Source: Candidatus Zixiibacteriota bacterium (GTDB lineage Bacteria; UBP14; UBA6098; JBKHBT01). Taken from it: 64,000 bases of DNA. The notes beneath the pieces were generated by a model. That model was not told where the DNA came from and did no database searches. It saw only the letters and a list, made by a program, of their open reading frames with translations. Below, in pieces: positions 159 to 32,730 of this stretch (position 1 is the stretch's first letter; the number at the start of each line of letters is the position of its first letter). Made by a program: the position numbers and the translations under genes. The stretch covers positions 41,627 through 105,626 of the forward strand of contig JBKHBT010000001.1 in assembly GCA_046542255.1 (NCBI GenBank), given 5' to 3'.

Positions 159-911
159 ATGAATACAATAGACTTCCTATTGACGGATATCTTTGCTTTC
201 GGCCTGGTTTTCCTCAGGATTACTGGCTTTGCTACAATGGCGCCATTTATTCGGGAAAACTATATTCCGCCGAGATTTCGTGTTCTCGGAGCGATATTAT
301 TCACGGCCCTTTTGTTTCGAAAGATAACTGGTGATATGCAGCCTGTTGGTTTTGCGGAATTCTTCTTCCTGGGAATAATGGAATTTGCCATCGGAGCCGC
401 CCTGGGCTTCGGGATGAATCTCATTTTCATGGCAATACGAAGCGCAGGCTCACAGATGGGACAGATGATCGGGCTTCGATTCCATATGATGAATACTGGC
501 GAAGAACCCATCGGCCTTGGCGAATTGCTTATGATATTCACTGCTTTTTTCGTTATTTCATCCGGCGGAGACAGATATATGATACAAGTTTTCATCGACC
601 TATACGAGAAAATACCGATAGGAGCTTTCAAGATGGGAGTAGTCTCGATGAGGCCGACACTCGAGCTGGGTACAGCTTTTTTCAAAGCGATTATCAAACT
701 ATCTCTACCGATTATTGGAGTAATTTTGACTTTCTATCTCCTGGTAGGCATCTTCCAGCACTTTTTCCAGAACTGGGACATATTTGCTATGGTATTTCCG
801 GGGGCGGTTTTTATCGGACTATGGGCTATCGCGCTTATGGCGCCGAATATTATAATCCAGGCATCGCAGATTTTCAAAGAGACAGTAAATTCGCTGGGAA
901 ATATATTTTGA
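159..911 (+). CDS. fliR: Flagellar biosynthesis/export protein FliR
   Basis: 250-aa polytopic membrane protein. N-terminus (FLLTDIFAFGLVFLRITGF) matches the FliR family. GGAGA RBS 5-6 nt upstream. Order is fliQ-fliR-flhB-flhA. Confidence 0.85.
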   Translation: MNTIDFLLTDIFAFGLVFLRITGFATMAPFIRENYIPPRFRVLGAILFTALLFRKITGDMQPVGFAEFFFLGIMEFAIGAALGFGMNLIFMAIRSAGSQMGQMIGLRFHMMNTGEEPIGLGELLMIFTAFFVISSGGDRYMIQVFIDLYEKIPIGAFKMGVVSMRPTLELGTAFFKAIIKLSLPIIGVILTFYLLVGIFQHFFQNWDIFAMVFPGAVFIGLWAIALMAPNIIIQASQIFKETVNSLGNIF

Positions 912-950
912 TTATAAAGCGAATTACATATAGCATAAGGAGGTGGTGAA

Positions 951-1979: not shown

Positions 1980-4020
1980 AATTGGAATGGGCCTTATAGA
2001 ACATTCAGACTATATTTTCCCGCTCGGGCTGGTTGTAGTCCTTGGCATGATGATTGTGCCTATTCCAACTGCTATGATGGATGTTATGCTGGCACTTAAT
2101 ATTAGTATGTCGTTTTTGGTTTTGCTTCTGGCTTCGTATATCAAAAAACAGCTTGAATTTAGCATATTTCCTGCGCTGCTTCTTGTTCTAACTTTATTCC
2201 GATTATCATTGAATGTCGCGTCAACGCGATTGATTCTGGGACAAGCATATGCTGGTAAGGTAATCAAAACCTTCGGAAATTTTGTTGTTACTGGCAATTA
2301 TGTGGTCGGCCTTGTAATATTTTTGATCATAGTGATTATCCAATTTATTGTAATTACAAAAGGTGCCGGGCGAATTGCCGAGGTAGCGGCCAGATTCATT
2401 CTCGATGCCTTGCCTGGCAAGCAGATGTCTATCGATGCCGATTTATCTGCCGGTGTTATCGATGAAGACGAAGCTCGTCAAATGCGAAAAGATATTGCCA
2501 AAGAAGCCGATTTTTATGGCGCGATGGATGGTGCATCGAAATTCGTCCGCGGCGATGCCATAGCTGGACTTATTATCACATTGATTAATATTGTCGGAGG
2601 CCTTGTCATTGGGGTTGCTCAGATGAAGATGACATTCGGCGAAGCAGTTAGCACATATACACTACTAACCGTTGGAGATGGGCTTGTATCGCAGATTCCC
2701 GCGCTTTTGGTATCGACTGCTGCCGGCCTTATGGTCACAAGGAGCGCATCAAAAAAGAGCCTTGGACGAGAGATTGCTGGCCAGTTTTTCAGTAATCCAC
2801 GCCCAGTCTTTATTACTGCCGGAATAATATTAATTGTTATGTTGCTCCCGGGAATGCCCAAAGTCCCATTTATGATGATTGCTGGAAGCCTCGGAGTTTT
2901 AGGATATGCAGTCAAGAAAGCCGGCGATAGCGCACCAGAGGAAGAAGAATTGCCCGATGAAGACGAAGGCGATGACGATATTCCTCTTTGGGCGCCAGTA
3001 GAACCTCTTGAAATCGAGCTTGGTTTTGATCTTTTGGAGCTGGTCGATGAGGAGCGGCCGGGCAATTTGCTCGAGAGAATCCCCGATCTTCGTAGAAAGC
3101 ATCTTCTTGAAACGGGTTTCCGAATACCTGCGATTCGTATTCGCGATAATCTCGGCCTGCCATCTTCGAATTATCGAATAAGCTTCTATGGCAATACTGC
3201 TGGAGAGGGTACAATTCTGATGAATAAATATCTCGCTCTTCCGCCGGAAGGTATGCAGGAGACTATGCTCGAGGGCGAAAAGACAGTCGATCCTGCTTTC
3301 GGTGTTCCCGCCGTATGGGTTCCGCCCGAAATGCAAATCGAGGCAGAAGACACCGGCCATACCGTTATCGAACCCGAAGCAGTACTAATCACGCATCTCG
3401 GCGAGCTGGTGAATCGTATGGGATATAAACTACTCGACCGCCAGAGCGTACAGGATCTTGTCGATCAGGTGCAGACGGAGTTTCCGGCGATTGTCGAGGA
3501 TGTTATTCCAGAGCAACTTCCATTGGGAGTGCTTCAGCGCGTACTTCAGGGATTACTCAAAGAAGGTGTACCAATTTCCAATATAACGGTCATTCTTGAG
3601 ACATTAGCGGACGTAAGCCAGCAGACCAAAGACCCGAAAATCCTCGTCGAAATGACGCGCCATGCGCTATCGGAAGAGATATATCAGATGTTTGTTGAGC
3701 CGGATGGCAAGCTCTATGCAGTCAGCTTCGACCCGAATCTTGAGGCATATCTTCAGAAATCGACACAAAACTCAAAGGATGGCTCATTCAATATCGCGCC
3801 ACAGACACTTTCGACTATTTTCCGAACGCTCAGGAGCAATCTCGACCGCATGAAGCGCGAAGGACATCCCGAGCTTCTAATTGTGTCGCCATCACTTCGC
3901 GGCAAGCTCCATGAAATCCTTGAACCACTTTTCCCACAGCTTGATATAATCTCCTATGCAGAAATGCCGCTACGCGCTCAATTGCAGTCGAAATGGATTG
4001 TATCGCTGAATCAGAAATAA
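1969..4020 (+). CDS. flhA: Flagellar export protein FlhA
   Basis: 683 aa. N-terminal TM domain followed by a large cytoplasmic domain typical of the FlhA/InvA/LcrD family. Overlaps flhB by 11 nt. Confidence 0.9.
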   Translation: MRHKIGMGLIEHSDYIFPLGLVVVLGMMIVPIPTAMMDVMLALNISMSFLVLLLASYIKKQLEFSIFPALLLVLTLFRLSLNVASTRLILGQAYAGKVIKTFGNFVVTGNYVVGLVIFLIIVIIQFIVITKGAGRIAEVAARFILDALPGKQMSIDADLSAGVIDEDEARQMRKDIAKEADFYGAMDGASKFVRGDAIAGLIITLINIVGGLVIGVAQMKMTFGEAVSTYTLLTVGDGLVSQIPALLVSTAAGLMVTRSASKKSLGREIAGQFFSNPRPVFITAGIILIVMLLPGMPKVPFMMIAGSLGVLGYAVKKAGDSAPEEEELPDEDEGDDDIPLWAPVEPLEIELGFDLLELVDEERPGNLLERIPDLRRKHLLETGFRIPAIRIRDNLGLPSSNYRISFYGNTAGEGTILMNKYLALPPEGMQETMLEGEKTVDPAFGVPAVWVPPEMQIEAEDTGHTVIEPEAVLITHLGELVNRMGYKLLDRQSVQDLVDQVQTEFPAIVEDVIPEQLPLGVLQRVLQGLLKEGVPISNITVILETLADVSQQTKDPKILVEMTRHALSEEIYQMFVEPDGKLYAVSFDPNLEAYLQKSTQNSKDGSFNIAPQTLSTIFRTLRSNLDRMKREGHPELLIVSPSLRGKLHEILEPLFPQLDIISYAEMPLRAQLQSKWIVSLNQK

Positions 4021-4074: not shown

Positions 4075-5457
4075 TTAGAAACTATACGTTGCTGACAGAG
4101 TCAATGCTGCAACATAGCCGTCATAGATGCCCGGAATATTGGTAATCAATGTGGAGTTGTCTTCATTGTATGGCTCTACATCCAGTTCGCCGAAATATTC
4201 CATTTCGAATGATGATTCGATCTGGATTTTGCCATAATCGGCAGAAAAACCAAGGTTGAATGCTGGATTATCATTGAAATCCGGGAGAAATAGATTCTGA
4301 TATTCCGGCACTGGCGGATGAGGCTCATAGAAAACACCACCGCGGAGTGCATATCTCGATAATCGCCATTCTGCCCCAAGGCTATATCGCCAATAGCTTT
4401 TCCATCCGACAGTAATTTGTTCCAAAATCGAATCTGTATCGGCATAGTAAACTGTAAGCTCATCGAGGACTTCCCAATCAGTATAGCTGGCATCGGCAGT
4501 TATAGTGATATCTTCTGTGATATCATAACCGACACCGAAACCATACATAAGGGGCCTTGGCAGAGACAATCTGGCATCCTCCCAGGGGCGAACGATATAG
4601 CCGCCATTTATTATCCCGAGACCTTCGCTAAGTGTTTGATTATAGAATTTATATACCTCTTCGCGGAATTCGCCTTCATATTCAAAATCGGAATCGTACT
4701 TGATGGAAGCTCCGAGTTGAATCTTATCAGTAGGTTGGTATTGTACTCCGGCATTGATACCCCAATTCAAAGACTGCATCTTGGCTTTTTGGAAAACAAT
4801 GCCAGTATCGGCCAGCATCTTTGTGGAATCCAGAGATGGCATATCGACATCGAAAGATGAATATGTAAAAGTTGTAGCCACTCCGATCGATAGGTTTTCA
4901 GTAATCTGATATGCTATAGCAGGCGAGCCAGTCATAGCAAAAATGGTTCCTACGAAATCTTCTTCTGGCAAGGCCTCGGTAGTTGTAAATTCGTATTCTC
5001 GGATATTATTTACAAGTTGCTTCGTAACATAATCCAAATCATGGTCCTTCATGACATCCCAGGTGCTTGCAACACCCAATGGTGAGTAGAAACCAAGTCC
5101 AAAAATCAGCTTTTTAGCTGCGATATTTGGCCGAAAACTGGAAAATATATGAGGCACAATGAAATCGCTGCTTGTCATCTGATGTTCTCCCGGGCGTATC
5201 ACATGAGCTGTTTTCAATAGCGTGTCGGCTGGGGTATATCGGAAATCATTATGGACCCACTGCCCTATCGCCTGTAATTTATAATCCGAATCGATATTGC
5301 TCAAACCGGCAGGATTCCAATAAATGGATGTAGGGTCATCGCATATTGCTCGATATGCTCCGCCCATCGAAATCCCGCGCGCACCGATTCCAGGAAGATG
5401 CATCCCAGCAGCAAAAACATTGATCACTATTGACAAAAGTAGGATGAATCGTTTCAT
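4075..5457 (-). CDS. Outer-membrane beta-barrel protein, FadL/PorV-like family
   Basis: 460 aa. Signal peptide. Motif GISMGGAYRAICDDPTSIYWNPAGL near the N-terminus, typical of FadL-like/PorV-like OMPs. C-terminal aromatic residue (…ATYSF). Alternating amphipathic beta-strand pattern. Confidence 0.5.
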   Translation of the reverse strand: MKRFILLLSIVINVFAAGMHLPGIGARGISMGGAYRAICDDPTSIYWNPAGLSNIDSDYKLQAIGQWVHNDFRYTPADTLLKTAHVIRPGEHQMTSSDFIVPHIFSSFRPNIAAKKLIFGLGFYSPLGVASTWDVMKDHDLDYVTKQLVNNIREYEFTTTEALPEEDFVGTIFAMTGSPAIAYQITENLSIGVATTFTYSSFDVDMPSLDSTKMLADTGIVFQKAKMQSLNWGINAGVQYQPTDKIQLGASIKYDSDFEYEGEFREEVYKFYNQTLSEGLGIINGGYIVRPWEDARLSLPRPLMYGFGVGYDITEDITITADASYTDWEVLDELTVYYADTDSILEQITVGWKSYWRYSLGAEWRLSRYALRGGVFYEPHPPVPEYQNLFLPDFNDNPAFNLGFSADYGKIQIESSFEMEYFGELDVEPYNEDNSTLITNIPGIYDGYVAALTLSATYSF

Positions 5458-5636
5458 TAAATTCCTTTCATAGTTTAATCATCTTTGCATGGAAAAATAA
5501 TACATTATTCGAAGCTTGCCTAATTCTCTTTGAAAAAAAATAATAAAGACATAAAAATAGTATTGACATTAGTGTGAAATTGAATATTTTATTAATGGAC
5601 ATTCGTACAGGTAGCGATGTCGTTTTGATTATTGCT

Positions 5637-5665
5637 TTGACAAGTTTTAGTAATTAATATATCAT
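5637..5665 (+). promoter_or_regulatory. Putative sigma70-type promoter for lexA (TTGACA-17nt-TATCAT)
   Basis: TTGACA at 5637-5642, 17-nt spacer, TATCAT at 5660-5665, about 25 nt upstream of the lexA ATG. GGGAGA RBS at 5679-5684. Confidence 0.35.
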
Positions 5666-5689
5666 TCAAATCTATATTGGGAGAATGAC

Positions 5690-6316
5690 ATGATTTATTC
5701 ATCGAATCCAAAAGGAGAGCTAAACAAAATAGAACGAGGCGTACTTGAATTTATAGTCCGCTATAAAAACGAGAACGATATTGCGCCGACAATTCGCGAA
5801 ATTGCCGGTACACTCAATATGTCCAAATCCCATGTGCCCAATATTCTCCGTTCGCTTCAGGATAAACAATATATCGAAGTATTAGACGGCACCCCCAGAG
5901 GTATCGTTCTAAAGCAAAAGAATTTCGGCAAACTGATTAGTATTCCCGTCATCGGGACAATCGCTGCTGGAGTTCCTGTATTTGCAGCCGAAAACTATGA
6001 AGGCAGCTTTAGCATTTCAAGTGATTTTGTACCTAATGGCGAGCTGTTTGCTCTTATGGTGTCTGGCGAAAGCATGATTGGCGCTAATATCTTCGATGGA
6101 GATGTCGCAATAATAAAACGCGAAGAAATAGCACAAAATGGGGATATAGTTGCCGCTCTCGTTGATGGTGAGGCTACGCTCAAGAGATTCTACCGAAATA
6201 AAGATGTCATCTGGCTTATGCCGGAGAATTCCGATTTCAAACCAGTGATAATTACAAAAGAAGAAGGGCCGCTTCTGGTGCTTGGTAAGCTGGTCGCAAC
6301 AATCAGGAAATACTAA
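5690..6316 (+). CDS. lexA: LexA repressor (S24 peptidase, SOS regulator)
   Basis: 208 aa. N-terminal winged HTH (TIREIAGTLNMSKSHV). C-terminal S24 domain with Ser (LMVSGESMIGANI) and Lys (ATLKRFY) of the catalytic dyad and a cleavage-site-like AAG. Confidence 0.85.
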   Translation: MIYSSNPKGELNKIERGVLEFIVRYKNENDIAPTIREIAGTLNMSKSHVPNILRSLQDKQYIEVLDGTPRGIVLKQKNFGKLISIPVIGTIAAGVPVFAAENYEGSFSISSDFVPNGELFALMVSGESMIGANIFDGDVAIIKREEIAQNGDIVAALVDGEATLKRFYRNKDVIWLMPENSDFKPVIITKEEGPLLVLGKLVATIRKY

Positions 6317-7134
6317 TGAGCCTAAAAGACAAGGTCGAGATCGGGCTTTCTGGTTTTCGCTTCGATAGCGATAAAAAGGTCTTCTATCCAAAAGGCCTTC
6401 AGCAAAACCGATTTATCGAATATTATGCAAAACATTTCACTATTTTAGAAATAAATTCTACATATTATGGACTACCGTCCGAGTCGGTGTTCGAGCGGTT
6501 CAATCGCCTTACGCCACAGGATTTCAAATTCATCGTGAAACTGCCAGGTAGTATGACTCATGAAAGAATCAATCCGAAGTCTGACTACGGCCATTTTATC
6601 AAATTGCTGCATAAAATCGATAATCCCGGAAAACTAAAAGGCCTGCTGGCGCAATTTCCACAGTCATTTCGCAATAACAAAAAAAATATCGAATATATAA
6701 AGTCGCTAAAAAGACTATTTGCCGGCCATATCAAAGGCGATAATTTATATATCGAATTTCGCCATGAAAGCTGGCTCGATGATAAAATATTCAAGATGCT
6801 TCAACAAGAAAATATGGGCATCGTATCAGTTGATGAACCTGATTTGCCGGAGCTTATGACACGAGAGCTTATCAATACCACCGATGAGATATACCTTCGG
6901 CTCCATAGCAGGAACAAAGAGAAATGGTATGAAGGCCGCGATGAGCGATATAATTATTACTATTCCGAAGATGAAATTAGAGAAATAATCAAAAAGCTCG
7001 ACAGAAAAACCAAAGACCGTATGAAAGCACTAGTCTTTTTCAATAATTGTCATCGAGGCTCTGCGGTCAAGAATGCCGAAAAAATGAAGCTGCTTCTTGG
7101 CCAGGATTTCGGGCCGCCCAATCTGGGGTTTTGA
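6316..7134 (+). CDS. DUF72 (UPF0759/YecE-like) family protein
   Basis: 272 aa. N-terminal IGLSGFRFDSDKKVFYP…YAKHFTILEINSTYYGLP matches the DUF72 consensus (IGTSGW…FYP…YA..F..VEIN.TFY). ATG overlaps the lexA TAA (TAATG). Confidence 0.75.
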   Translation: MSLKDKVEIGLSGFRFDSDKKVFYPKGLQQNRFIEYYAKHFTILEINSTYYGLPSESVFERFNRLTPQDFKFIVKLPGSMTHERINPKSDYGHFIKLLHKIDNPGKLKGLLAQFPQSFRNNKKNIEYIKSLKRLFAGHIKGDNLYIEFRHESWLDDKIFKMLQQENMGIVSVDEPDLPELMTRELINTTDEIYLRLHSRNKEKWYEGRDERYNYYYSEDEIREIIKKLDRKTKDRMKALVFFNNCHRGSAVKNAEKMKLLLGQDFGPPNLGF

Positions 7135-7258: not shown

Positions 7259-8836
7259 ATGAGAATTTGGATAATAATCATTTTCGCAGTCAATATTCTA
7301 TCGGCAGTCGATGACAGCTTATTGTTGCCTATTGATTCCCTCGAGATCGAAAAAGCTCTCGATTCATTAGCAAATCAGGGATTCTTTGACTATGAGATGT
7401 CCAATAAGGAAGATTCATTGCTGATAGTTTATGATGCAGAAAAAACAAAATTCGGTAATATCTCTTATATTGTAGAAAGCAAAGATACATCATTAGATAT
7501 CGATTCTCCAGTTTTTCTAACATCCGAGAATTTATATGATTGGATATTGAAAATTGCCCGAGAATTTGCTGATAATGGTTACCCATTTGCTAAAATCAAA
7601 ATCAATAAGCTCGAAATTTCGCAAAATAAAGCCGATATTGCACTTCAAATAAATAGGAACAATAGAATTAAAATCCATGATGTGCATATCTATGAAAATA
7701 CAAAGACCAAATCATCATCGATTAGAAAGCAAATGCTTTTGGAAAAAGGCCAGTTATATCGTATTTCTGAAATTGAAAAGGGTATTTCAAGAGTAAATCG
7801 TAAAGGAATCGTCAAATTTAGCAAAACTCATAATATCGCTCGTGATAATCAGGGCAACTGGTATATTGGCCTAAATGGCGAAGATATAGCTCAATCATCC
7901 GCACAGGGGCTTATAACAGCCCATCGAAATGCTGAAGATATAATGGAATTTGGCGGCCAGATTCAGGCGAATATCAAGAATATTTGGGGAAAGGCGAGAG
8001 TTTTCCATTTGGAATGGGAAAAGCTTAACTCGGAGAATGCGCTGCTCGAATTTAAGGCCTATGACCCAAATTTCGCAGGTACATTTTTCGGGGCGGAATT
8101 GTATTTTGGGCAAAACACCAAATCTACCTTTCTAAAAAGAACCCTAAAAATCAATGCTGAATATCCTATTGGATATATTTGGGATATTTCAGCCGGTTTT
8201 GACTTCAAATGGACAATTCCCGATTCATCAGGGCTATGGAGACATCGTATTCCATATCAAAATTCCAGCGGATTTGTTTTGGGAAGCCGTGCAAGCACTA
8301 TCGACAATCCCGATTTCCCCAAAAGAGGTTTCTATTCGGATGTCGAGTTGATTGGCAGCATTAATACTTTCGATGCACCAAAAGATGCCATCGCCGAAGA
8401 AAACATGAAAGATCAATATGAACTTCGCACTAATATCAGTGGAAGTTATGTGCAATATTTAGATTTCTGGGGGCCATTTATAAGATTTGGCGCAAAGGGA
8501 ATTTTAACCACAACCGCAAAAGAGTTATCCATATCGCAAAAAGAATATATCGGCGGCTTTAATACTATTCGCGGGCACCTTGAAGATGAAGCCTATGGCG
8601 ATAGAATTTTCTATTCCGGTGCAGAACTTCGCTTTCTCCTTGCCCCAAAGAGCGCAATCTTCCCATTTTTTGATTTTGGTATCTATAATGAAAATGTGAT
8701 ATCGAATATCTATGGCTATGGAATAGGCATAATATCTCAAACTGCAATTGGAATGATTAGCATAAGTTATGGAATTTCTCCAGAACGAAATATGACAAAT
8801 GGATTATTGCATTTTGGAATTCGTAGCCAATTTTAG
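7259..8836 (+). CDS. Omp85-family (BamA/TamA/D15-like) outer-membrane protein with POTRA-like N-terminal region
   Basis: 525 aa. Signal peptide. N-terminal POTRA-like region. C-terminal beta-barrel ending …GLLHFGIRSQF, the terminal aromatic typical of Omp85 barrels. Confidence 0.5.
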   Translation: MRIWIIIIFAVNILSAVDDSLLLPIDSLEIEKALDSLANQGFFDYEMSNKEDSLLIVYDAEKTKFGNISYIVESKDTSLDIDSPVFLTSENLYDWILKIAREFADNGYPFAKIKINKLEISQNKADIALQINRNNRIKIHDVHIYENTKTKSSSIRKQMLLEKGQLYRISEIEKGISRVNRKGIVKFSKTHNIARDNQGNWYIGLNGEDIAQSSAQGLITAHRNAEDIMEFGGQIQANIKNIWGKARVFHLEWEKLNSENALLEFKAYDPNFAGTFFGAELYFGQNTKSTFLKRTLKINAEYPIGYIWDISAGFDFKWTIPDSSGLWRHRIPYQNSSGFVLGSRASTIDNPDFPKRGFYSDVELIGSINTFDAPKDAIAEENMKDQYELRTNISGSYVQYLDFWGPFIRFGAKGILTTTAKELSISQKEYIGGFNTIRGHLEDEAYGDRIFYSGAELRFLLAPKSAIFPFFDFGIYNENVISNIYGYGIGIISQTAIGMISISYGISPERNMTNGLLHFGIRSQF

Positions 8837-13518: not shown

Positions 13519-14454
13519 TTGTTAAATATGAGAAGGATGAAATACATATTCTTATTCTCTTTGATCCTGATATGCTTCGGCGAACCGGGGACGGATGATT
13601 TCACGAGAATCTCGGTGGAGCCATTTTATGAGGCTACTGGCGGTGCATTTGCTGCAAAGAGCTTTGTAGAGCTAATTCCAAAGGCATCGGCTTCGAACTA
13701 TAATCCTGCTTTGCTGGACGGCCAGAGATCGATTATGCTTTCACATAGCAGCGTATTCGATAATCTCTATATCGCCGATTTCATAGCCTATGGCGACCGC
13801 TTCTCCGAAAAGATTAATTGGGGGATCTCTGCTCTTGTATCTGGCGGCGATGGCCTTATGGTAACTGCATTACCAGATGAAGAGGATAGCATTTCGATGG
13901 ATAATAGGCCATTTATTCTTGAAGAAAAATCGCATTACGATTTTATTATTAATCCATCGGCAAGCTATCGGCTTAGCGATAGAACGAAGGCGGGAATAAC
14001 TGTGCGTCTGTTCTATCGCAAAATTATGGATGAGAATGCTATGGGCGGTGGATTATCCGCAGGCCTTAGCCATAGCCTTAGCAAGAAACTCAATCTTGGC
14101 GCATATATCAGGAATCTATCGACTATGCCTGTTATTTGGAGCACTGGCACCAATGAAACTGCCTTGCCATCATTCCGATTGGGCGGCGTATATAGATTGG
14201 CCGAAAATGAAAATCTCACTGTCGAAGCAGCAGCAGATGGCGAATATTCACTCGATGAGAAGATTTTTGATTATGGTGGTGGCATCAGGGCACAGTTTAT
14301 AGACAGATTTTCGGTTCTTTTGGGATATGGCGACAAAGGTTTCTCAGCCGGTGCGGCTGCTATTTTCAATGGAATCGGCATATCGGCATCATATAGTAAT
14401 CAAAGCGAGTTGAATAATTCATATAGGATAGCGCTATTCTATAGGTGGAATTAA
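13519..14454 (+). CDS. Outer-membrane beta-barrel protein, PorV/FadL-like (NPALL motif)
   Basis: 311 aa. Signal peptide. TGGAFAAKSFVELIPKASASNYNPALL parallels the GGAYRAI…YWNPAGL motif of the 4075..5457 OMP. Beta-strand periodicity. Start ambiguous (TTG 13519, or ATG 13528/13537). Confidence 0.4.
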   Translation: MLNMRRMKYIFLFSLILICFGEPGTDDFTRISVEPFYEATGGAFAAKSFVELIPKASASNYNPALLDGQRSIMLSHSSVFDNLYIADFIAYGDRFSEKINWGISALVSGGDGLMVTALPDEEDSISMDNRPFILEEKSHYDFIINPSASYRLSDRTKAGITVRLFYRKIMDENAMGGGLSAGLSHSLSKKLNLGAYIRNLSTMPVIWSTGTNETALPSFRLGGVYRLAENENLTVEAAADGEYSLDEKIFDYGGGIRAQFIDRFSVLLGYGDKGFSAGAAAIFNGIGISASYSNQSELNNSYRIALFYRWN

Positions 14455-15380
14455 TGATTCTTTCTCGAAAAGCCTTCTTATTATTGATATTGACTCTAAT
14501 ATCTGCTAATTTTGCAGCTCAGGAAGATGTGGACTTATATTCGCATTTCTGGGAACATATACAAAAAATGCCGCTTCTTGAACCACCTTCACATGATGAG
14601 ATTCGTTTTGCTGATTTTCTATTCGAGCATGGCCTTTATGATGATGCAATCACTGAGTATAGCCGATTTATCTATGCGAATAGAGATGATGCTAATCGCG
14701 ATTATGCTTTGTTTCAAAAAGCGGTTTGCTATTTCAAGATAAATGATAATATTCAGGCCAGAAGCACTTTGAATGAACTGGCGTATAGCTCAAGAGATCA
14801 AGATAATGCCTTTCGAGCGCGCTTGATTCTATCTTTGCATTATGTCGCAACTGGCGATATGAAAAGAGGCCGTTTCGAGCTTCAGGAATTACAAAGAACG
14901 GCTACACTCGATAGACAGGGCCTTATCAATTATTTCTTTGGTTGGATGGACTTGATCGATGGAGAAATCGAATCTGCAAATCTGTGTTTCGAAAAATCAT
15001 TTCGCGATACATTGACACCAAAGCGCTATCAAAAACGCGCCTATGAGATCCATAGGTGGTTCAATGCTGAAGACCCAGAATTGCCGGATAAATCACCAGC
15101 CATCGCAGCATTTGCTTCGAGCATACTTCCTGGAACCGGACAAATGTACGCTGGCAGTTTCGCCGATGGCATCAATTCGATGATAATAAACGCTGGATGC
15201 GGTTATCTTACTATTAGCAATTTCACTGCTGCCAGGTATTTTCAGGGAGCATATATCCTTTACTTTTTATGGAAAAGATATTATCTTGGTGGAATTAGTA
15301 ATGCTGAGGCCAGAGCAATTGAATTTAACGATAATGCTCGCGATGAGATAATTGCATCATTGATGGATGCTTTTTTGTAG
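14445..15380 (+). CDS. Secreted TPR-like protein with C-terminal hydrophobic PGTGQMYAG module (paralog 1)
   Basis: 311 aa. Signal peptide. TPR-like helical repeats. C-terminal SILPGTGQMYAGSFADGINSMIINAG followed by hydrophobic segments. Aligns with the 15845..16744 product. Confidence 0.5.
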   Translation: MELMILSRKAFLLLILTLISANFAAQEDVDLYSHFWEHIQKMPLLEPPSHDEIRFADFLFEHGLYDDAITEYSRFIYANRDDANRDYALFQKAVCYFKINDNIQARSTLNELAYSSRDQDNAFRARLILSLHYVATGDMKRGRFELQELQRTATLDRQGLINYFFGWMDLIDGEIESANLCFEKSFRDTLTPKRYQKRAYEIHRWFNAEDPELPDKSPAIAAFASSILPGTGQMYAGSFADGINSMIINAGCGYLTISNFTAARYFQGAYILYFLWKRYYLGGISNAEARAIEFNDNARDEIIASLMDAFL

Positions 15381-15387
15381 GTAATAA

Positions 15388-15867
15388 ATGAAATGGCTAA
15401 TTTTTACATTATTTTTTATCCTAAATATTGGAATGGCTCAGGCAGATGATATCAAACCGCCTCATGCGGACCCTGATGCTCCGATTGCCAATCATGATAG
15501 CCTGCTAAAAGTTAGAATTCCGCCGAAATATAATAATCCCGATATGGATGCTTCGATAAATCCAAAGATTATCGGAAAAGCACAAAAAGATAGGAATACA
15601 AATGCCACCAATCCAGTTAAAATGCTTGCAGATTTGCTTTTTCGACTTTATTCGAGGTTCATCACGCCGCAAGATGATCAGAAATGCCAATTCGAGCTAT
15701 CCTGTAGTGCCTATGCCAGGAAGGCTTTTAGATGCCAAAACCCTGTTAAGGCTGCGCTTATGACCTCTGATAGATTGCTTCGATGTAATCCTGTTGCATA
15801 TAAGTACTATGGAAAAAATCAAAATGAGCAATTAATCGATAATATTGATGGAGTCTGCAATGAATAG
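15388..15867 (+). CDS. YidD-like (DUF37) protein with N-terminal secreted extension
   Basis: 159 aa. C-terminal half LLFRLYSRFITPQDDQKCQFELSCSAYARKAFRCQNPVKAALMTSDRLLRCNPVA matches the YidD consensus (YQ..ISP….C.F.PSCS.Y…A…G…G..L…RLLRCHP). N-terminal ~90 aa is a signal peptide plus an extra region. Confidence 0.6.
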   Translation: MKWLIFTLFFILNIGMAQADDIKPPHADPDAPIANHDSLLKVRIPPKYNNPDMDASINPKIIGKAQKDRNTNATNPVKMLADLLFRLYSRFITPQDDQKCQFELSCSAYARKAFRCQNPVKAALMTSDRLLRCNPVAYKYYGKNQNEQLIDNIDGVCNE

Positions 15868-16744
15868 TTTTTTGAAATTATTGCTTTTGTTTTTGATTGT
15901 CATTAGCGTCTTTCCTGCCGATGATATTAAACCGGATTCGCCCGAAGGTGTTTTACACTTTGCCGACCATCTATTCCAGTATGGCGAATATCGCCGTGCT
16001 GCAACAGAATACCTTCGATACTATTCTCTTTATTTCGATAAAGAAGATTCTGACCATGCGCTTTTCAATGCTGCCTTTTCATTGGAGAAGTCAGAGGAAT
16101 ATTCTAATGCTCGAAATTTCTATATGATGCTAAAAAATAAAAGCGGTAATGATTATAAAGCCGGCCTTGCTGGATACCGTTATGCTGTTAATCATTTTCT
16201 CGATGAGAATATCGATTCGTGTTTGATATATATCGATGAATATCGTGCCAGCGAGAGCTTTTCTCATAGATATTTAGAAGGTTTTTGTTATCTCAAGATG
16301 CGTGAATATGCTCTCGCTGAAAGCCTGTATTATTCACTTGCTTCAATCAATGCTGCCAGCGAGCTTTCTTCGAGTGTTCATTATTTGATATCAAAATCCC
16401 GCCAGGGTTCTTCACTGCCGGCCAGAAACCCGGCTACGGCGGCACTTATGTCCACGGTAATTCCCGGCCTCGGCATGGGCTATTCCGAAAGATGGGGCGA
16501 TGCTTTCTTTAGCTTTATGGCAGTTGCTGTTACAATTGCGCCCGCAGTTTATTTCTACGAAGAAGACAGGACATTCTCGATAACTACCGGTTTGATTGGA
16601 TTATTTTTCTATGGCGGAAATATCTATGGGTCTGCCAATGCAGCCAAGAAATTCAATGAGAAAAAGCACAAAGATTTCTACAATAGTACACTTGAAGGCG
16701 TACCTTTCCAACCTGACGAAATTAACACCAATTTCAAACCATAA
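15845..16744 (+). CDS. Secreted TPR-like protein with C-terminal PGLGMGYSE hydrophobic module (paralog 2)
   Basis: 299 aa. Real start is probably the ATG at 15860 (GGAG 6 nt upstream; MNSFLKLLLLFL signal peptide). HFADHLFQYGEYRRAATEYLRYY aligns with RFADFLFEHGLYDDAITEYSRFI of paralog 1. C-terminal TVIPGLGMGYSERWGDAFFSFMAVAV aligns with SILPGTGQMYAGSFADGINSMIINAG of paralog 1. Confidence 0.5.
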   Translation: MMESAMNSFLKLLLLFLIVISVFPADDIKPDSPEGVLHFADHLFQYGEYRRAATEYLRYYSLYFDKEDSDHALFNAAFSLEKSEEYSNARNFYMMLKNKSGNDYKAGLAGYRYAVNHFLDENIDSCLIYIDEYRASESFSHRYLEGFCYLKMREYALAESLYYSLASINAASELSSSVHYLISKSRQGSSLPARNPATAALMSTVIPGLGMGYSERWGDAFFSFMAVAVTIAPAVYFYEEDRTFSITTGLIGLFFYGGNIYGSANAAKKFNEKKHKDFYNSTLEGVPFQPDEINTNFKP

Positions 16745-17346
16745 TGGCAAAATCAATTAAAAATGAAATAAAAAGAAAAGCGATTCACCTTGCCGCTCTG
16801 TCTATACCGATTGGCTATAGCTTTCTCGATAAAAAAACAGCGCTTTTTTGGGTAGCTTTATGTACAGTTATATCAGCCTTGATAGATATATTACGTTCTG
16901 AAAACCGTGCAATAAGAATACTTTTCTTCAAATTCTTCCGCGATATGCTTCGACATAAAGAGAAGTATAATTTTACAGGAGCCACTTTTATTCTATTTGG
17001 TAGTACCCTGACTTTGCTATTCTACAATAAATGGTTTGCAATTATTGCAGTTACTTATATTATTGTGGGCGATGTTTTTGCTGCAATAATTGGTAAATCA
17101 TTTGGAAAACACAGGATTTACGGCTCCGGCTCTATCGAGGGCAGTATAGCTTTTTTCATAAGTGCTGCTTTATTTACTTCTCTGATGTTTTGGGTTCCCT
17201 ATGAGATAGTTCCAATATACTATCGAATTTTGGGCGCTGTGCTGGCTGCTGCAATCGAGCTTGTGATCAATCAAGTCGATGATAACCTTACAGTTCCTTT
17301 ATTGACGGGACTTGTACTTCAGTTTGCATTAAGCGGTAGATTATGA
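16744..17346 (+). CDS. Polytopic membrane protein, CTP-transferase superfamily (CdsA / dolichol-kinase-like)
   Basis: 200 aa, about 6 TM. Motif IIVGDVFAAIIGKSFGKHRIYGSGSIEGSIAFFI resembles the C-terminal catalytic motif of phosphatidate cytidylyltransferase and polyprenol kinases. Confidence 0.4.
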   Translation: MAKSIKNEIKRKAIHLAALSIPIGYSFLDKKTALFWVALCTVISALIDILRSENRAIRILFFKFFRDMLRHKEKYNFTGATFILFGSTLTLLFYNKWFAIIAVTYIIVGDVFAAIIGKSFGKHRIYGSGSIEGSIAFFISAALFTSLMFWVPYEIVPIYYRILGAVLAAAIELVINQVDDNLTVPLLTGLVLQFALSGRL

Positions 17347-23472: not shown

Positions 23473-26400
23473 TTATCTTATCAAAGTTAGTGTACCTTTG
23501 CATACTCTTTCTCCATCGACTGTAATGATATAAAGATAAGTCCCGGATGGGAGATCTTTATCATTATCGGATTTGCCATCGAAAACCGATTTCTCGATTT
23601 CGCCAGCATCGACTTCGATCGTTCTTGCTTTTTGGCCACGCATATCAAAAATCTCTATCTTGCCTCCAAGGCTATATAAATTGGGGAATGAAAAATCTAT
23701 ATCATCATTGTAACCATCATCATTTGGCGTAAATGGATTGGTCGAAAGGCCGCAATCAAGATCCGGCTCGACCCAGAATTTCAGTGTATCGGTGCGCCAA
23801 TTTGGTGAACAGAAATCGGGGCTATCCTCGGCATATACTATGACTGTAAATGAGTCATAGCCCGAATAATCGAAACCACACGCATTAAAATTGATATCCC
23901 AGGTGCCAGAAGAATCGGTTGTTTCCTCGATACAATCCAGTGATGTTACTGTTGCGATTGTATCATAATATGCTGAAAGGATATATGCTGCAAAAGCATT
24001 GGTATTGACATCCGAGAAATAATCCATCGCGCCGAACTCTACATAAGGAGCATCATCGGGTATCATCTCTCCCGGCTCAGGATAGCTAAACCAAAGCTGT
24101 GGCGGAGAAAAATCGAATACAAGATGCCATGTTCTTTGGACAGCTTCATAACCATAGATATCTGATAGGCCATTCAAACGGACAAGCAAACTTCCCTGGT
24201 CGAATGGTTCCGAAGGTGAGAAAACGATGGTATCCGGGGATGTCAATTCTAGCCGATAATCAGAAAGCGTAAAAATCTCGCCATCGATTTCAATTTCGAT
24301 ACTGGATTCTTCAACTTGCTCTTCGCTATGGATAGAAAAAAACAATACATGATCTTCTTCGCTCTGACAGGCAATCACAGAGCCATTTGGCGGATGTATA
24401 AGCTCGATATCTGGCCTCGGCGCAATATTTACTTCATGAATCTCGGATAAAAGAAGGGTTCTATCATCGCGATTATCCAGATCGAAGTCATTATCATAGC
24501 AATGGAGTCTCCACGATACAATGATATCGCCATCTTGTGCTGGAATCGGTGCGCGCGATCGATATATTGAATCGCCATCGACGAAGTCATGGAATTCGAT
24601 ATAGATGCGATTGCTCGAAATATCCAGCTCACCATCGGTATCCCATTCGATATAGGCTGCCTGAGCATCCGAGAAATCTCCGGTAATAAAGATTCCAGAA
24701 CTATCTTCCAATGCAAATTCTATATAAAATGCGCTGTCCTGTACCCAATTAGATGGACTGGGTGAATGCATTATGGGCGGCAAAGTATCATCATCAGGAA
24801 TATAGAAATTTGTATTATAAAATGTATCATTTGCGCCACAGTATTCTGCACAATCGGCAATGTAAATGGTAAAATCGAAAGAATCATCCTCTGAATAGCT
24901 AAATGCTACATCCGATGGATCGAAATATACCGTATCGCCATTTATATCGAGATGTGAATTGTCGAGAGTATCGGAATCAATTGTGAAAATCATTGTCTCG
25001 AAATCAATACCACACATATCGTCATCAATTATAAACCAAACCGGCACATCAAATTGGCCGATAATTACAGAATCAGGCTCCGGAGACACCTCCAAAAGCT
25101 CAGGTGGTTCAATATCAATATAAAATTCTGTGAAAATTTCATCGGTATGTTCATTGCCGAGTGTATCGCTGATTTGCATAAGCGATGCTGTAATACTGTC
25201 GCCATGTCCAAATGGGGCAGTCGGCCTGAAAATCAGTGTATCGTCATTTAGCGATAGTTCACTCGCCGGCCAGGGAAATGTGGAATCATTGACATTGAAA
25301 ACCATCGACTCTAAATCGAGGCCATTGTCATCATAGAGCCATAAACGGATTTCTTGATTTTCGCATGAAGAATATGCTCCGCTATCTGGCAAAATGAAAT
25401 ATGCTTCCGGGCCGACCATATCGACTACGAAAAAGTATTCGAAAGTGGTTGAATTGGCTTCACAGAAATCCGGCGCATCGGCTATCTGGATTTCGATATA
25501 GGCTGTGTCTTCGAAGGAGAGGCCAGCGGCTGCAAAATCTATGTAAATAGTGTCTTCGGAATCAGAAAGCCACATGCCTGCTGGGCTATCGATATATCGC
25601 AACTCGGTATCATTAACATCGACAATAATACTCGATGGATCGATGCCAGCAATCTCATCGTAAATATAAATAGACATCACCGGGTCGCCAGCGGCCGTGC
25701 CACCGATTCTTGGGTATATTGGAAGCACATGAGGCGGCGATGTATCGACATAGAAACGGCCTTCTAATGTATCAGAAATAGGATTGCCAAGAGAATCCTC
25801 AGCGGCTGTAACCATCACATCGACAGTATCGCCATGCGACCATGCCGGCGAAGGCGTATAAATTAGCGTATCGCCAATATAGCTTGCAGATGGCGATGTG
25901 GTTGTAAAAAACTCTCCATCGATATAGAATTCTATGCTCGATTCAACAACGCCATTGACATCGCGAATGCTAAGATAAAGCGGGCCTTCATTGCATGATG
26001 TAACCGTCTCGTCCTCTGGCATAATAAAATTGGCAATAGGCCCGGATAGATTTATCGAGAAGCTCCAGCAAGTATCTCCTTCGTTCTCGCCACAATAGCC
26101 GGCAAGGTCCTGGAAATAGGTGCAAACCTCGACAGTATCGTAATCATCGAAATGAGGCACGACATCTTCACTAAGATAAAATCTTGTGCCATCCCAAATA
26201 GGATCATAAGAAACGCCATCTATCATGATGCTGACTGTGGATGTATCGAAGCCGGAAAGCTCATCATCCAGATTGAAATAGATATCAGTGATGCTATCGC
26301 CTATTACATAGCCGGCTTCGGGATATTCATCGACTAGATATGGTGGCGCAAAGTCCCTTGTTACGCTAAAAGCTTCGCTTTCCAGAGTATTGGCGACATT

Positions 26401-28554
26401 ATCCGAAACAGAAACATAAACCGTAATCTCATCACCATCATCCATGGAAATTGGCGGTTCGAATTCAAGGTTTCCATCTTCGAATGTCATATAATCTGGA
26501 TAGTCATACTCCGAGCCTTCGACAGTTATCGTGATAGAAGTCTCATCGACACCCATCAAATCGGAAATCTCGAAAATCATAGAAAGCTCGGGACATGAAG
26601 TATAGATTGTCGGCTCGATAAGCTCGACCTCTGGTGGTAAGGTGTCCACAAAGAAGCTCCAGCAGCGAGCATTGGAATTTCTGTCACAATATGCAGCATT
26701 GTCGATAGCAGTGATACAAACTTCGACAGAATCACCAGTATAGATACCTGCTTCATCACCGTCTATGCTGAGTGCGCCAGTAACTGGCTCAAATAGAATG
26801 CCGTCTTCGATAAGTATGCCATTGACAGTTATCAGAAAGCCAGTAGCATCGATTCCCGAAAGGTCATCAGCGATATTTGCATGGATATCGAAGCTGGGAT
26901 CGGCTATTAAAGTGTCTGGATTTGGTGATAAATCGGTTATCTCCGGCGGCAATAAATCGAAAATGATTTCGAAAGTATCCGGGTCATAAATACTGAAGCC
27001 TGCGGTATTTCGGACATTAGTCAATACTCCTGTAACAGTATCGCCATGTTCGAAGCAGCCTTCTTCGCCCTCGGGTTCAAAAAACAGCGTATCGCCGGAA
27101 ACTCTGAAACTGGTATAGTCGAAGCCGTGGCCTTCTATCATAGCATCCATAGTACCGGGTTCTATATCGATAGAATCAGGCATTTCGACAAGCCATGCCA
27201 CTCTTGCACATTCGCAGCTTGTAATCTCAGTAGGGTAGAGCAGTGTAACTTCGGGAGCCGGAACATCTGCTTCTATTAATATCCAATGGAAAATCGGCCT
27301 GCCAACGCCTCTGTCCATAAGGACACGATATTGGAAATATCGAAATTCCATATCCAGGTCTTCGCCTTCTTCCACATCGAACCAGTCTGTCCAATCTACA
27401 TCATCGAGGGATATGCGCGCCTGTACTGAAAGGCTTGCAAGCTCGGGTACGGTCTCCGACCAGGTTATTCTTTCAAGTGTGCCGATTCCTGGCAGTGATT
27501 TGACATCGGATTTATAATCCCCAACACCGACACCGCCATTATAGGCATAGTACATGGAATTGATCATGGCCTTGGCTTCCCATTCTATTGGCCGGAATGT
27601 CTCCGGAGAGCCCCTTAACTCTTCAGACTCATGGCCAGTGCTGAAAAATGAAAAGAAGGAATTGTGTTCCGGGTCATTATAAGTATGCATATATGGGATT
27701 CCTGCGTCATTGACATACCACAAATCGCCTCTATCGTGGACTTCGCCAAAATCGTGACACTCTGTAACATCGAACTCTTCGGGCAATACAAATGGTACAT
27801 TCATAACAATTGCATCACCATCTGCGCCGGGCGCCCTTTGCACATGCGTCCATGTTTCATCGGGTACGCAGCAATCTACCCATTCGGCTCTAAGGCCAGT
27901 AAGCTCTGTCATATTGTTAAAATTGGGATGTTCGAAATTATCACTGACTGAACAGCATAGCATTTCCCATGGCCATAAATCATAATGGTCCCTTCCCCAT
28001 CTTTTGGCAATAACATCATGGGTAAAAACAACTCCTTTTCCAAGACGAGCAAATTCTTCGACGGCATTTCTGGCTTCTTCGGAAATATCATTGCTCGAAC
28101 CACCATAACCATTAGCAATGCCGAAAAATATAATATGAAAAAAGGAAACTGGAAGGGTAACTGTGCCACCTGTATATGCGTTTTCGACAGTAAGCTCATC
28201 AGAAGCAGAAGAAATCGAATTGAAATCGTCAAACTCTATTAGGTAAATTCCGAATGTCAACCTGGGCGTGCCATCATCGGAATATTCATTGATAGGGTCA
28301 CTGAGACATTCGACACAATGGTCTTCTGGATAAATTTGAAGGACATAAATTGTATCGTTTTCAGTAAATATCAAAGCGCCATTATCCGGATCTGGTAATC
28401 CATCGGGATCCGGGCTTATGACATCGATATTTTCTGCATCGCCAGTGGAGAAATCAAAAACAGTAGTTTCATAAAATTCTATTGGATAAGCGATTATGCT
28501 TATCGTAAATACAAAAAGAATAAGTCCGATGCATAATTTGGCATACTTAGCCAT
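23473..28554 (-). CDS. Giant secreted cell-surface protein with T9SS type-B C-terminal sorting domain
   Basis: 1693 aa. Signal peptide. N-terminal alpha/beta region (HIIFFGIANGYGG…GKGVVFTHD). Many ~100-aa Ig-like modules. The last ~90 aa are FTPNDDGYNDDIDFSF…GKIEIFDMRGQ…GTYLYIITVDGERVCKGTLTLIR, the gliding-motility/CHU_C-type T9SS type-B CTD (FTPNGDGxND motif). Confidence 0.75.
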   Translation of the reverse strand: MAKYAKLCIGLILFVFTISIIAYPIEFYETTVFDFSTGDAENIDVISPDPDGLPDPDNGALIFTENDTIYVLQIYPEDHCVECLSDPINEYSDDGTPRLTFGIYLIEFDDFNSISSASDELTVENAYTGGTVTLPVSFFHIIFFGIANGYGGSSNDISEEARNAVEEFARLGKGVVFTHDVIAKRWGRDHYDLWPWEMLCCSVSDNFEHPNFNNMTELTGLRAEWVDCCVPDETWTHVQRAPGADGDAIVMNVPFVLPEEFDVTECHDFGEVHDRGDLWYVNDAGIPYMHTYNDPEHNSFFSFFSTGHESEELRGSPETFRPIEWEAKAMINSMYYAYNGGVGVGDYKSDVKSLPGIGTLERITWSETVPELASLSVQARISLDDVDWTDWFDVEEGEDLDMEFRYFQYRVLMDRGVGRPIFHWILIEADVPAPEVTLLYPTEITSCECARVAWLVEMPDSIDIEPGTMDAMIEGHGFDYTSFRVSGDTLFFEPEGEEGCFEHGDTVTGVLTNVRNTAGFSIYDPDTFEIIFDLLPPEITDLSPNPDTLIADPSFDIHANIADDLSGIDATGFLITVNGILIEDGILFEPVTGALSIDGDEAGIYTGDSVEVCITAIDNAAYCDRNSNARCWSFFVDTLPPEVELIEPTIYTSCPELSMIFEISDLMGVDETSITITVEGSEYDYPDYMTFEDGNLEFEPPISMDDGDEITVYVSVSDNVANTLESEAFSVTRDFAPPYLVDEYPEAGYVIGDSITDIYFNLDDELSGFDTSTVSIMIDGVSYDPIWDGTRFYLSEDVVPHFDDYDTVEVCTYFQDLAGYCGENEGDTCWSFSINLSGPIANFIMPEDETVTSCNEGPLYLSIRDVNGVVESSIEFYIDGEFFTTTSPSASYIGDTLIYTPSPAWSHGDTVDVMVTAAEDSLGNPISDTLEGRFYVDTSPPHVLPIYPRIGGTAAGDPVMSIYIYDEIAGIDPSSIIVDVNDTELRYIDSPAGMWLSDSEDTIYIDFAAAGLSFEDTAYIEIQIADAPDFCEANSTTFEYFFVVDMVGPEAYFILPDSGAYSSCENQEIRLWLYDDNGLDLESMVFNVNDSTFPWPASELSLNDDTLIFRPTAPFGHGDSITASLMQISDTLGNEHTDEIFTEFYIDIEPPELLEVSPEPDSVIIGQFDVPVWFIIDDDMCGIDFETMIFTIDSDTLDNSHLDINGDTVYFDPSDVAFSYSEDDSFDFTIYIADCAEYCGANDTFYNTNFYIPDDDTLPPIMHSPSPSNWVQDSAFYIEFALEDSSGIFITGDFSDAQAAYIEWDTDGELDISSNRIYIEFHDFVDGDSIYRSRAPIPAQDGDIIVSWRLHCYDNDFDLDNRDDRTLLLSEIHEVNIAPRPDIELIHPPNGSVIACQSEEDHVLFFSIHSEEQVEESSIEIEIDGEIFTLSDYRLELTSPDTIVFSPSEPFDQGSLLVRLNGLSDIYGYEAVQRTWHLVFDFSPPQLWFSYPEPGEMIPDDAPYVEFGAMDYFSDVNTNAFAAYILSAYYDTIATVTSLDCIEETTDSSGTWDINFNACGFDYSGYDSFTVIVYAEDSPDFCSPNWRTDTLKFWVEPDLDCGLSTNPFTPNDDGYNDDIDFSFPNLYSLGGKIEIFDMRGQKARTIEVDAGEIEKSVFDGKSDNDKDLPSGTYLYIITVDGERVCKGTLTLIR

Positions 28555-32684: not shown

Positions 32685-32730
32685 AGTGCACAATTTAATA
32701 TTTTTATCATTTTCAATCAAGCACTTTGAT

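Follow-up and report, generated by a model that had tools for sequence, protein, structure and literature searches.

Organization of the locus

The stretch of DNA analysed here (64 kb, hereafter the window, to which all coordinates refer unless another locus is named) belongs to a metagenome-assembled genome (MAG) of Candidatus Zixiibacteriota, and carries five tightly packed plus-strand genes at 13528-17346 that, as read from the sequence, encode a PorV-like protein, a first tetratricopeptide repeat (TPR)-like membrane protein (paralog A), a YidD-like protein, a second such membrane protein (paralog B) and a 200-amino acid (aa) membrane protein (Table 1). The YidD-like protein of 159 aa, identical to NCBI MFP4458002.1 (125-kb contig), and its two flanking partners are the subject of this report. 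The stop codon of the PorV-like gene and the ATG of paralog A share one base (TAATG), an arrangement indicative of translational coupling, and the start of paralog A is most likely this ATG at 14454 and not the GTG at 14445; annotations differ on the point, with one public gene call giving ATG 14454 (308 aa) and the NCBI record a GTG (311 aa). As paralog A ends at 15380, 7 nt before the ATG of the yidD-like gene, the two genes do not overlap, whereas paralog B, starting at ATG 15860 (the same 294-aa form as in its NCBI record), overlaps the yidD-like gene by 8 nt (ATGAATAG). The overlap on both sides that was claimed in the original prediction therefore holds for paralog B only, and its coordinates are essentially right except at the longest-open-reading-frame starts GTG 14445 and TTG 15845, which are probably not the real ones. 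The start of the 200-aa membrane protein gene overlaps the stop of paralog B by 1 nt; the protein has no NCBIfam match and no homolog beside the module in any other locus, and its membership of the module is doubtful. Promoter and terminator scans of the locus returned hits at chance level only, and a repeat search in the operon gave nothing meaningful, the mature N-terminus 'DDIKP' being common to the YidD-like protein and paralog B with no DNA repeat behind it.

Table 1. Features of the yidD-like locus (window positions; AF2, AlphaFold2; HMM, hidden Markov model)
Feature	Position	Strand	Evidence or remark
PorV/PorQ-like outer-membrane barrel gene	13528..14454	+	NCBIfam NF033709, sub-threshold; TAATG coupling to paralog A
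Paralog A, A-type, 308 aa	14454..15380	+	A-type HMM 95 bits, B-type 23 bits; NCBI MFP4458001.1
Paralog A, signal peptide	aa 1 to ~23	+	Sequence
Paralog A, TPR-like helices	~aa 47-205, nt 14592-15068	+	Sequence; AF2 model of homolog P0028
Paralog A, PGxGxxY membrane module	aa 213-290, nt 15090-15323	+	Charged WKRYY third helix
YidD-like protein, predicted exported, 159 aa	15388..15867	+	PF01809 and TIGR00278 above cutoff; NCBI MFP4458002.1 'YidD'
YidD-like protein, signal peptide	aa 1-19, nt 15388-15444	+	MKWLIFTLFFILNIGMAQA, followed by DD
YidD-like protein, Pro/Asp-rich linker	aa 20-75, nt 15445-15612	+	AF2 low confidence
YidD domain	aa 76-159, nt 15613-15864	+	Cys100, Cys106, Cys133
Paralog B, B-type, 294 aa	15860..16744	+	Module 57.6 bits on B-type HMM, 36.7 on A-type; NCBI MFP4458003.1
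Paralog B, signal peptide	aa 1-20	+	Sequence
Paralog B, TPR-like region	~aa 27-180, nt 15938-16399	+	Sequence
Paralog B, PGxGxxY module	aa 189-266, nt 16424-16657	+	GNIYG third helix
200-aa polytopic membrane protein	16744..17346	+	Weak match to the cytidylyltransferase family PF01148, E=0.0014, 18.9 bits (cutoff 24)

A YidD domain behind a signal peptide

The 159-aa protein consists of a true YidD-family domain preceded by a Sec signal peptide and a flexible linker. It matches PF01809 (Pfam; E=1.9e-14, 53.6 bits against a cutoff of 27, residues 83-137) as well as the NCBIfam equivalog model TIGR00278 (56.4 bits against a cutoff of 40), with the YidD matches spanning residues ~80-137, which confirms the YidD signature that had been recognized by eye. 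In an alignment with 22 canonical YidDs, C100, C106, C133 and the SAYA and R..RC.P motifs are invariant, and the three-Cys signature of YidD (C-x5-C-S ... R-C-x-P) is present in full. In size, the protein departs from the canonical form (~70-110 aa, no export signal) by its 159 aa, its signal peptide, from which export is predicted, and its ~55-aa linker. In the N-terminus (MKWLIFTLFFILNIGMAQA, then DD), a positive n-region precedes a 13-residue hydrophobic core and an A-x-A site, as expected of a classical Sec signal. The AF2 model (mean predicted local distance difference test score (pLDDT) 68.5) has a helix at residues 2-21, a low-confidence stretch at 22-75 and the YidD helices at 76-96, 106-116 and 119-133 (pLDDT ~72-87).

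Canonical yidD lies in the rpmH-rnpA-yidD-yidC cluster, of which the window gene is not a member; nor is such a cluster adjacent to any of the 50 related genome loci described below. Profile scans (Pfam/NCBIfam) of 36 window ORFs found no rnpA, yidC or second YidD, the large ORFs at 23473-28554 (bar its C-terminus), 29268-32837, 44588-46855 and from 48688 onward not being covered, and an HMM search of every window ORF of 50 aa or more likewise found no second YidD. In agreement with the original prediction, the gene is atypical for a yidD in being long, in encoding a signal peptide and in not standing beside rnpA or yidC.

Paralogs A and B

Paralogs A and B are ancient paralogs, each built of a signal peptide, a predicted TPR-like solenoid and a three-helix PGxGxxY membrane module. 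The two proteins share 23% identity over 266 aa (BLASTP, E=7e-9), so that the paralogy first proposed for them stands, and have in common a signal-peptide-like N-terminus, an all-helical middle and a C-terminal module that begins at S.(I/V)(L/I)PG.G..Y (SSILPGTGQMY in A, STVIPGLGMGY in B). The TPR-like repeats also proposed for both are supported at the structural level through the A-type homolog P0028 (39% identical to A), whereas the Pfam TPR matches of A are sub-threshold (TPR_19, 21.6 against 25 bits; TPR_6, 21.7 against 26.3 bits) and B has none, with only a weak NCBIfam match to YbgF. In the AF2 model of P0028, eight paired helices occupy residues 45-205 and a three-helix module follows at 211-228 (kinked at PGAG), 232-254 and 258-303, all with pLDDT >90, the module helices being antiparallel and joined by 3-residue loops. 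A Foldseek search of this model against the PDB matched TPR proteins throughout, generic in kind and including YfgM and NlpI, with E values no better than 1e-3; no solved structure was matched by sequence. The model and its matches suggest a TPR fold for the partners, and among family members TPR_16 is matched weakly by 27 of 34, with some relatives passing TPR thresholds.

The resemblance of the membrane module to DUF5683 (PF18935) does not extend to family membership, which was rejected because the profile matches are weak and partial (A 17.6 and B 13.5 bits against a cutoff of 26.7, over profile positions 3-26 only, i.e. 24 of 151). TM2 (PF05154) is matched by neither A nor B at E<=0.1 and by relatives at 13-23 bits against 27.9; weak module matches among the 34 family members (DUF6677 in nine, DUF5683 in five, TM2 in three) are all below gathering thresholds. 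The curated family libraries contain no model for this module, which is probably a distant relative of the DUF5683/DUF6677/TM2 group.

Separate HMMs for the genes in first and in second partner position of 27 WOR-3-type triads distinguish two ancient partner types, of which the A-type has the third-helix motif NRFY/KRYY and the B-type GNIYGG. By these models window paralog A is A-type and window paralog B, in its module, B-type (scores in Table 1), and the orthology of both types holds across phyla.

Conservation of the association across phyla

We define the module as a YidD-like gene with an export signal that adjoins, on the same strand, or is fused to at least one member of the partner family, a definition that the window fits. 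A scan of one genome per species (HMM scan of six-frame ORFs) yielded 50 loci, of which 48 are informative, the other two being cut by contig ends. In 46 of the 48, a family member is either fused to a YidD-like domain or immediately preceded, on the same strand, by a YidD-like gene. The module is found in WOR-3, TA06, Stahlbacteria, Planctomycetota, Spirochaetota, Desulfobacterales/Desulfatirhabdiaceae, Thermodesulfobacteriota, Trichlorobacter and Myxococcota, such that a YidD-like gene and a B-type partner are adjacent or fused in at least eight bacterial groups, with an A-type second partner in some. A metagenome scan seeded with A-type sequences added five more complete triads, three fusions and two upstream-truncated B-A pairs, and 8 of the 11 informative metagenome loci fit the definition of an exported YidD with a TPR/PGxGxxY partner. 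Recurrence of the triad elsewhere, which had been set as one of two tests of the original prediction, is observed in both scans. A search with the family profile gave ~80 clusters of proteins 234-250 aa long, from WOR-3, TA06 and relatives, and 940 family clusters were found at E<=1e-30 among 1.84 billion representatives.

The usual gene order is YidD-B-A, and many lineages have only YidD and one partner, which is of the B-type. In the close relatives L001, L002 and L060 the order is A-YidD-B, as in the window; the paralog-yidD-paralog arrangement is thus conserved locally, and in Zixibacteria constitutes a permutation of the common order that keeps the YidD-B junction. Two separate YidD-B-A triads in different neighbourhoods occur in each of three WOR-3 MAGs (L019 and L025 in JBARXB01, L027 and L034 in JAFGPO01, L021 and L038 in JBDRWA01).

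A YidD domain is present in 17 of the top 147 family representatives, and the fusions have three architectures. A-type followed by YidD is represented by P0028 (408 aa; 12 near-identical sequences from several sources), YidD followed by B-type by P0106, L028 and the Planctomycetota loci L041 and L042, and polyproteins of ~700-726 aa with the order signal peptide-YidD-B-A by five sequences (P0118, P0119, P0122, P0126 and P0135). That the proteins act together as a single physical unit is supported most strongly by independent fusions in different orders. At L003, the A-YidD fusion gene has close downstream of it a DarT-Macro (DarTG-like) toxin-antitoxin pair (L003 positions 5511-6868, minus strand) that is absent in the sister contig L004 and is probably an unrelated insertion.

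The literature searched offered no description linking YidD with TPR or TM2-like proteins, no discussion of DUF5683 in bacteria was found, and no curated family model covers the arrangement, which agrees with its original designation as undescribed. The exported YidD + TPR/PGxGxxY module is accordingly undescribed and widely distributed, the domain types themselves being already known.

Sequence traits of the partnered YidDs

A hydrophobic N-terminal segment is present in ~46 of 50 partnered YidDs and in none of the canonical YidDs. It takes the form of a Sec-type signal in the window, L061 and Spirochaetota, and of a lipobox (LSGC, AAGC, LLGC or LAAC) in Desulfobacterales, Thermodesulfobacteriota and Planctomycetota. 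All three module proteins have full-length signal peptides in L061, as in the window, and in WOR-3 all three open with a short M-x-(hydrophobic)8-10-Q stub. A coding role for the conserved residues 'CLKY' upstream of the WOR-3 YidD starts was considered and rejected: these ORFs open only with the Met behind them, and an AT-rich DNA signal is the likelier explanation.

The alignment of partnered YidDs across phyla reveals further traits not seen in canonical YidDs: an acidic Q/D-G-D stretch ahead of the first Cys, S/A-D-R (SDR in the window protein) where canonical YidDs have W/K-R before the third Cys, and an insertion of ~3-17 residues, depending on lineage, before a DPV motif that is followed by an N..F/W motif. 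The window protein has an insertion of ~3 residues, lacks the DPV motif itself and ends in LIDNIDG. The Cys-x5-Cys pair is invariant in partnered YidDs, the third Cys being replaced by Asp in Planctomycetota, by Glu in Spirochaetota and by Ala or Gln in Myxococcota. The best database matches that lack the N-terminal extension are ordinary YidDs, of which P0005 sits in an rpmH-rnpA-yidD-yidC-jag cluster. On these traits, the partnered YidDs would appear to form a distinct exported subfamily that is paralogous to canonical YidD. Two extra cysteines, Cys116 (15733-15735) and Cys157 (15856-15858), vary together: the window protein and P0002 have the two, P0003 and the L060 ortholog neither. Such a co-variation would fit a disulfide in an exported protein.

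Predicted membrane topology

When encoded separately, the proteins each have an export signal, and the polyproteins have a single N-terminal signal with no extra hydrophobic segment between module B and the TPR domain of A. Taken together, these arrangements would require each module to begin and end on one side of the membrane, which in turn would place the YidD domain, along with the two TPR domains, on the periplasmic side. In P0028, the order is signal peptide-TPR(A)-module(A)-YidD, with the YidD domain C-terminal of module A. Reconciling three predicted helices with an even number of crossings demands that one helix be interfacial or re-entrant, and the candidates for such a non-spanning helix are the first, which is kinked at PG, and the third, which is charged in the A-type. 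The module may therefore comprise a TM2-like hairpin and one interfacial helix. Application of the positive-inside rule to the module loops gave no decisive orientation.

Gene neighbourhoods

The PorV-like protein aligns end-to-end with NF033709 (residues 49-308, E=2e-11, 44 bits against a cutoff of 90), but all of its matches are sub-threshold, including those to the equivalog models (PorV2, 34 against 325 bits; PorQ, 20 against 220 bits), and it has no Pfam match. L060 retains a PorV-like ortholog in the same position (61% identity) together with the upstream HhH-GPD gene, and the gene is absent from the other related loci, with no PorV-like neighbour in the 14 metagenome loci; it probably belongs to the operon in this lineage alone. 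The segment 10275-12752 (plus strand), two genes upstream of the module, encodes a DUF1573 protein followed by a 561-aa protein with two thioredoxin/glutaredoxin-like domains and a polytopic membrane domain, and the thioredoxin-like membrane-domain gene keeps its position upstream of the module in L060 (1-474).

Beyond the YidD-partner pair, no neighbour gene is conserved across phyla, and the neighbours are often envelope-related. In WOR-3 the module lies in conserved housekeeping synteny (pheST, RNase Y), and downstream of the triad (e.g. L005 11098-13048, plus strand) are genes for an Lpp-like 93-aa lipoprotein, a ~260-aa lipoprotein and an OMP_b-brl protein. Some WOR-3 loci have a UPF0164/PorV-like-OmpA protein or an M6 peptidase with a type IX secretion system (T9SS) C-terminal domain (CTD) adjoining, and a T9SS-sorted protease is encoded downstream in L031-L033. 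An Rce1-like CPBP intramembrane protease gene lies divergently beside the YidD-like gene in 16 WOR-3 loci (e.g. L005 7976-8647, minus strand). Directly upstream of the pair, on the same strand, in five Desulfobacterales/Thermodesulfobacteriota loci (L044, L046, L053, L054 and L057) is a type II secretion system (T2SS) block consisting of T2SS-M, an unassigned 295-aa protein, a GspC-like PDZ protein, a GspD-like secretin and a GspE-like ATPase.

Elsewhere in the window, the C-terminus of a 1693-aa protein (23473-28554, minus strand) just passes the T9SS sorting models TIGR04131 (35.9 against 35 bits) and TIGR04183 (23.1 against 23 bits), from which the Zixibacteria genome appears to use T9SS-type sorting. 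At 48688-64000 (plus strand), running off the window end, one uninterrupted frame of >5100 aa with a lipobox-like N-terminus (…LSTTLFWFACQK) represents a giant surface protein or lipoprotein gene, which is why the ORF list has no long entries there. Tandem full-length serpins (40568-41755 and 41766-43007, plus strand; PF00079, E=1e-95 and 3e-112) are followed by the apolipoprotein N-acyltransferase gene lnt. Also present are the flagellar export genes fliR-flhB-flhA (159-4020, plus strand), a FadL/TodX-type barrel (4075-5457, minus strand) and a 525-aa Omp85/POTRA protein (7259-8836, plus strand) that scores far below the BamA cutoff.

Proposed function and alternative explanations

The reading that we favour, with confidence evenly balanced, is that the module encodes an inner-membrane-anchored, periplasm-facing complex that aids envelope protein biogenesis. 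Its structural part is the better placed, as the fusions and signals make it probable that A, the YidD-like protein and B form one such complex. The functional part, an aid to the membrane entry, release or hand-over of envelope proteins, is tentative and is drawn by analogy, the role in membrane insertion or assembly being suggested by the YidD name and the envelope-related gene neighbourhood. The three gene products would be subunits of one complex whose anchor lies in the inner membrane and whose soluble parts are periplasmic. The TPR solenoids may offer a surface on which unfolded or newly translocated envelope proteins dock or are held, and may also tether the YidD-like domain, which would be a small amphipathic unit active at the membrane surface. 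At the outer leaflet, the YidD-like domain would mirror cytoplasmic YidD at Sec/YidC and make the membrane entry or release of clients more efficient, the clients perhaps being outer-membrane or secretion-system components in view of the neighbouring genes.

Several observations weigh against such a complex or its proposed role. The YidD-like gene is absent at two Desulfobacterales loci (L044 and L053) in which the partner is present, and three metagenome loci (L071, L072 and L073) have a solo A-type gene with no YidD-like or B-type gene within 8 kb, so that the link between YidD and partner is strong but not absolute. The three antiparallel helices of the AF2 model, if taken naively as three crossings, conflict with the even-crossing argument. 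The WOR-3 N-termini have only ~11-12 hydrophobic residues and no A-x-A site, and are unusual as signal peptides. Contact between the YidD and TPR domains is suggested by the fusions only; with no third partner shared across phyla, the class of clients can only be guessed; and the function of canonical YidD is itself poorly defined.

Among the alternatives, the module could serve a secretion machine of the outer membrane (T9SS in FCB-related phyla, T2SS in Desulfobacterales) as an accessory, helping to assemble or tether outer-membrane components such as PorV-like barrels or secretins instead of aiding insertion in general. Such a role would be in line with the coupling of the PorV-like gene to paralog A in the window and its conservation in L060, the T9SS-sorted cargo encoded in the Zixibacteria genome, the UPF0164/PorV-like-OmpA protein and T9SS-CTD protease beside WOR-3 triads, and the gspM-C-D-E block directly upstream in the five loci noted above. 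It is nonetheless unlikely, in that the neighbours vary between phyla, no secretion genes are found near the Spirochaetota, Myxococcota and Planctomycetota loci, and the PorV-like protein both scores at under half of its cutoff and lacks counterparts in the 14 metagenome loci.

We also considered a periplasmic metal- or thiol-handling unit with no insertion role, in which the cysteines serve as ligands or redox centres and the TPR/TM2-like proteins as membrane holders. The replacement of the third Cys by Ala or Gln in Myxococcota is difficult to reconcile with this explanation, whereas its replacement by Asp or Glu in Planctomycetota and Spirochaetota is ligand-like, the Cys-x5-Cys pair is invariant, and close relatives have either both or neither of Cys116 and Cys157. 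A thioredoxin/glutaredoxin-like membrane protein is encoded two genes upstream in the window and in L060, but this neighbour is not seen in other lineages, and no metal-binding or redox family was matched in profile searches, leaving the explanation quite unlikely.

A membrane-damaging effector, with the TPR membrane proteins as immunity, regulation or export partners, is very unlikely despite the predicted export of the YidD-like protein and the first naming of PF01809 as a haemolytic domain, with B. subtilis YtjA lysing cells. The housekeeping synteny of the WOR-3 loci (pheST, RNase Y) and the lack of mobility or toxin-system genes conserved alongside argue against it, and covalent fusion to the partner and lipoprotein anchoring would keep the YidD-like protein on the producer's own membrane. 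Finally, an ordinary YidD of the cytoplasmic face that has an N-terminal anchor and chance TPR neighbours, although in keeping with the match to the equivalog model, the NCBI name and the lack of another YidD in the window, is effectively excluded by the signal (K2 ... AQA, then DD) that predicts export, by the lipoboxes of the orthologs, which are decisive for export, by the adjacency or fusion in 46 of 48 loci across phyla, and by the canonical copies in rpmH-rnpA-yidD-yidC clusters, which are without the insertion of the subfamily.

Returning to the periplasm-facing complex, a wider generalization would be that the module is a widespread, hitherto unrecognized periplasmic counterpart of YidD, i.e. 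a two- or three-subunit inner-membrane complex of the exported YidD-like domain with one or two TPR/TM2-like hairpin proteins that aids the membrane entry, release or hand-over of envelope proteins from the periplasmic side. We regard this as possible though doubtful; if true, it would add a new component of diderm envelope biogenesis in many phyla without well-studied model organisms. Likewise, a role in outer-membrane or secretion-system biogenesis, if true, would identify a missing envelope factor in Spirochaetota, Planctomycetota, Desulfobacterota, Myxococcota and FCB-related candidate phyla. YidD is nearly universal and its mechanism unclear, and an exported subfamily with a defined, often fused partner offers a handle on what the YidD fold binds and does. 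The association also gives a first context for a large uncharacterized membrane-protein family and for the orphan TM2/DUF5683/DUF6677-like PGxGxxY module, which current annotation hides under the generic names 'YidD' (the 159-aa protein in NCBI) and 'tetratricopeptide repeat protein' (paralog A).

Comparison with known systems

Canonical YidD (E. coli YidD, B. subtilis YtjA), the 'membrane protein insertion efficiency factor', has the same domain as the window protein, with an amphipathic N-terminal helix, Cys-x5-Cys-Ser and RC(N)P, and reportedly acts at the cytoplasmic face near Sec/YidC. It is, however, a protein of ~75-110 aa without a signal peptide, encoded in rpmH-rnpA-yidD-yidC, whereas the window protein has 159 aa, is predicted to be exported and has dedicated TPR membrane partners.

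The PorV/PorQ barrels of the T9SS resemble the gene upstream of paralog A in the end-to-end alignment to NF033709, but the score is below cutoff and the equivalog models fail. BamD/YfiO, YbgF/CpoB and NlpI are similar to the partners in weak profile matches (BamD, E=1.5e-7, 31 bits against 81; YbgF) or, for NlpI, in structure; these proteins are lipoproteins or soluble and have no membrane module, and the scores are far below cutoffs. The membrane module itself is comparable to TM2 (PF05154), DUF5683 (PF18935) and DUF6677 (PF20382), in which a G-rich PGxGxxY(A/S)G helix is followed by a second hydrophobic helix, and the weak matches cover exactly that stretch; unlike these families, the partner family adds a conserved third helix (GNIYGG in the B-type, NRFY/KRYY in the A-type) and an N-terminal TPR domain.

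In overall design, the module is most readily compared with YfgM-PpiD of the SecYEG translocon, which likewise combines a membrane-anchored, periplasm-facing TPR protein with a small partner. YfgM (chain 8zht_B) is among the Foldseek matches to the A-type model of P0028 (TM-score 0.65 on target), and relatives give weak matches to TPR_21, the YfgM family. The likeness is a functional analogy only, as there is no membership at the sequence level: the anchor is a C-terminal PGxGxxY module instead of an N-terminal helix, and the partner is YidD-like and not a chaperone of the peptidyl-prolyl isomerase type.

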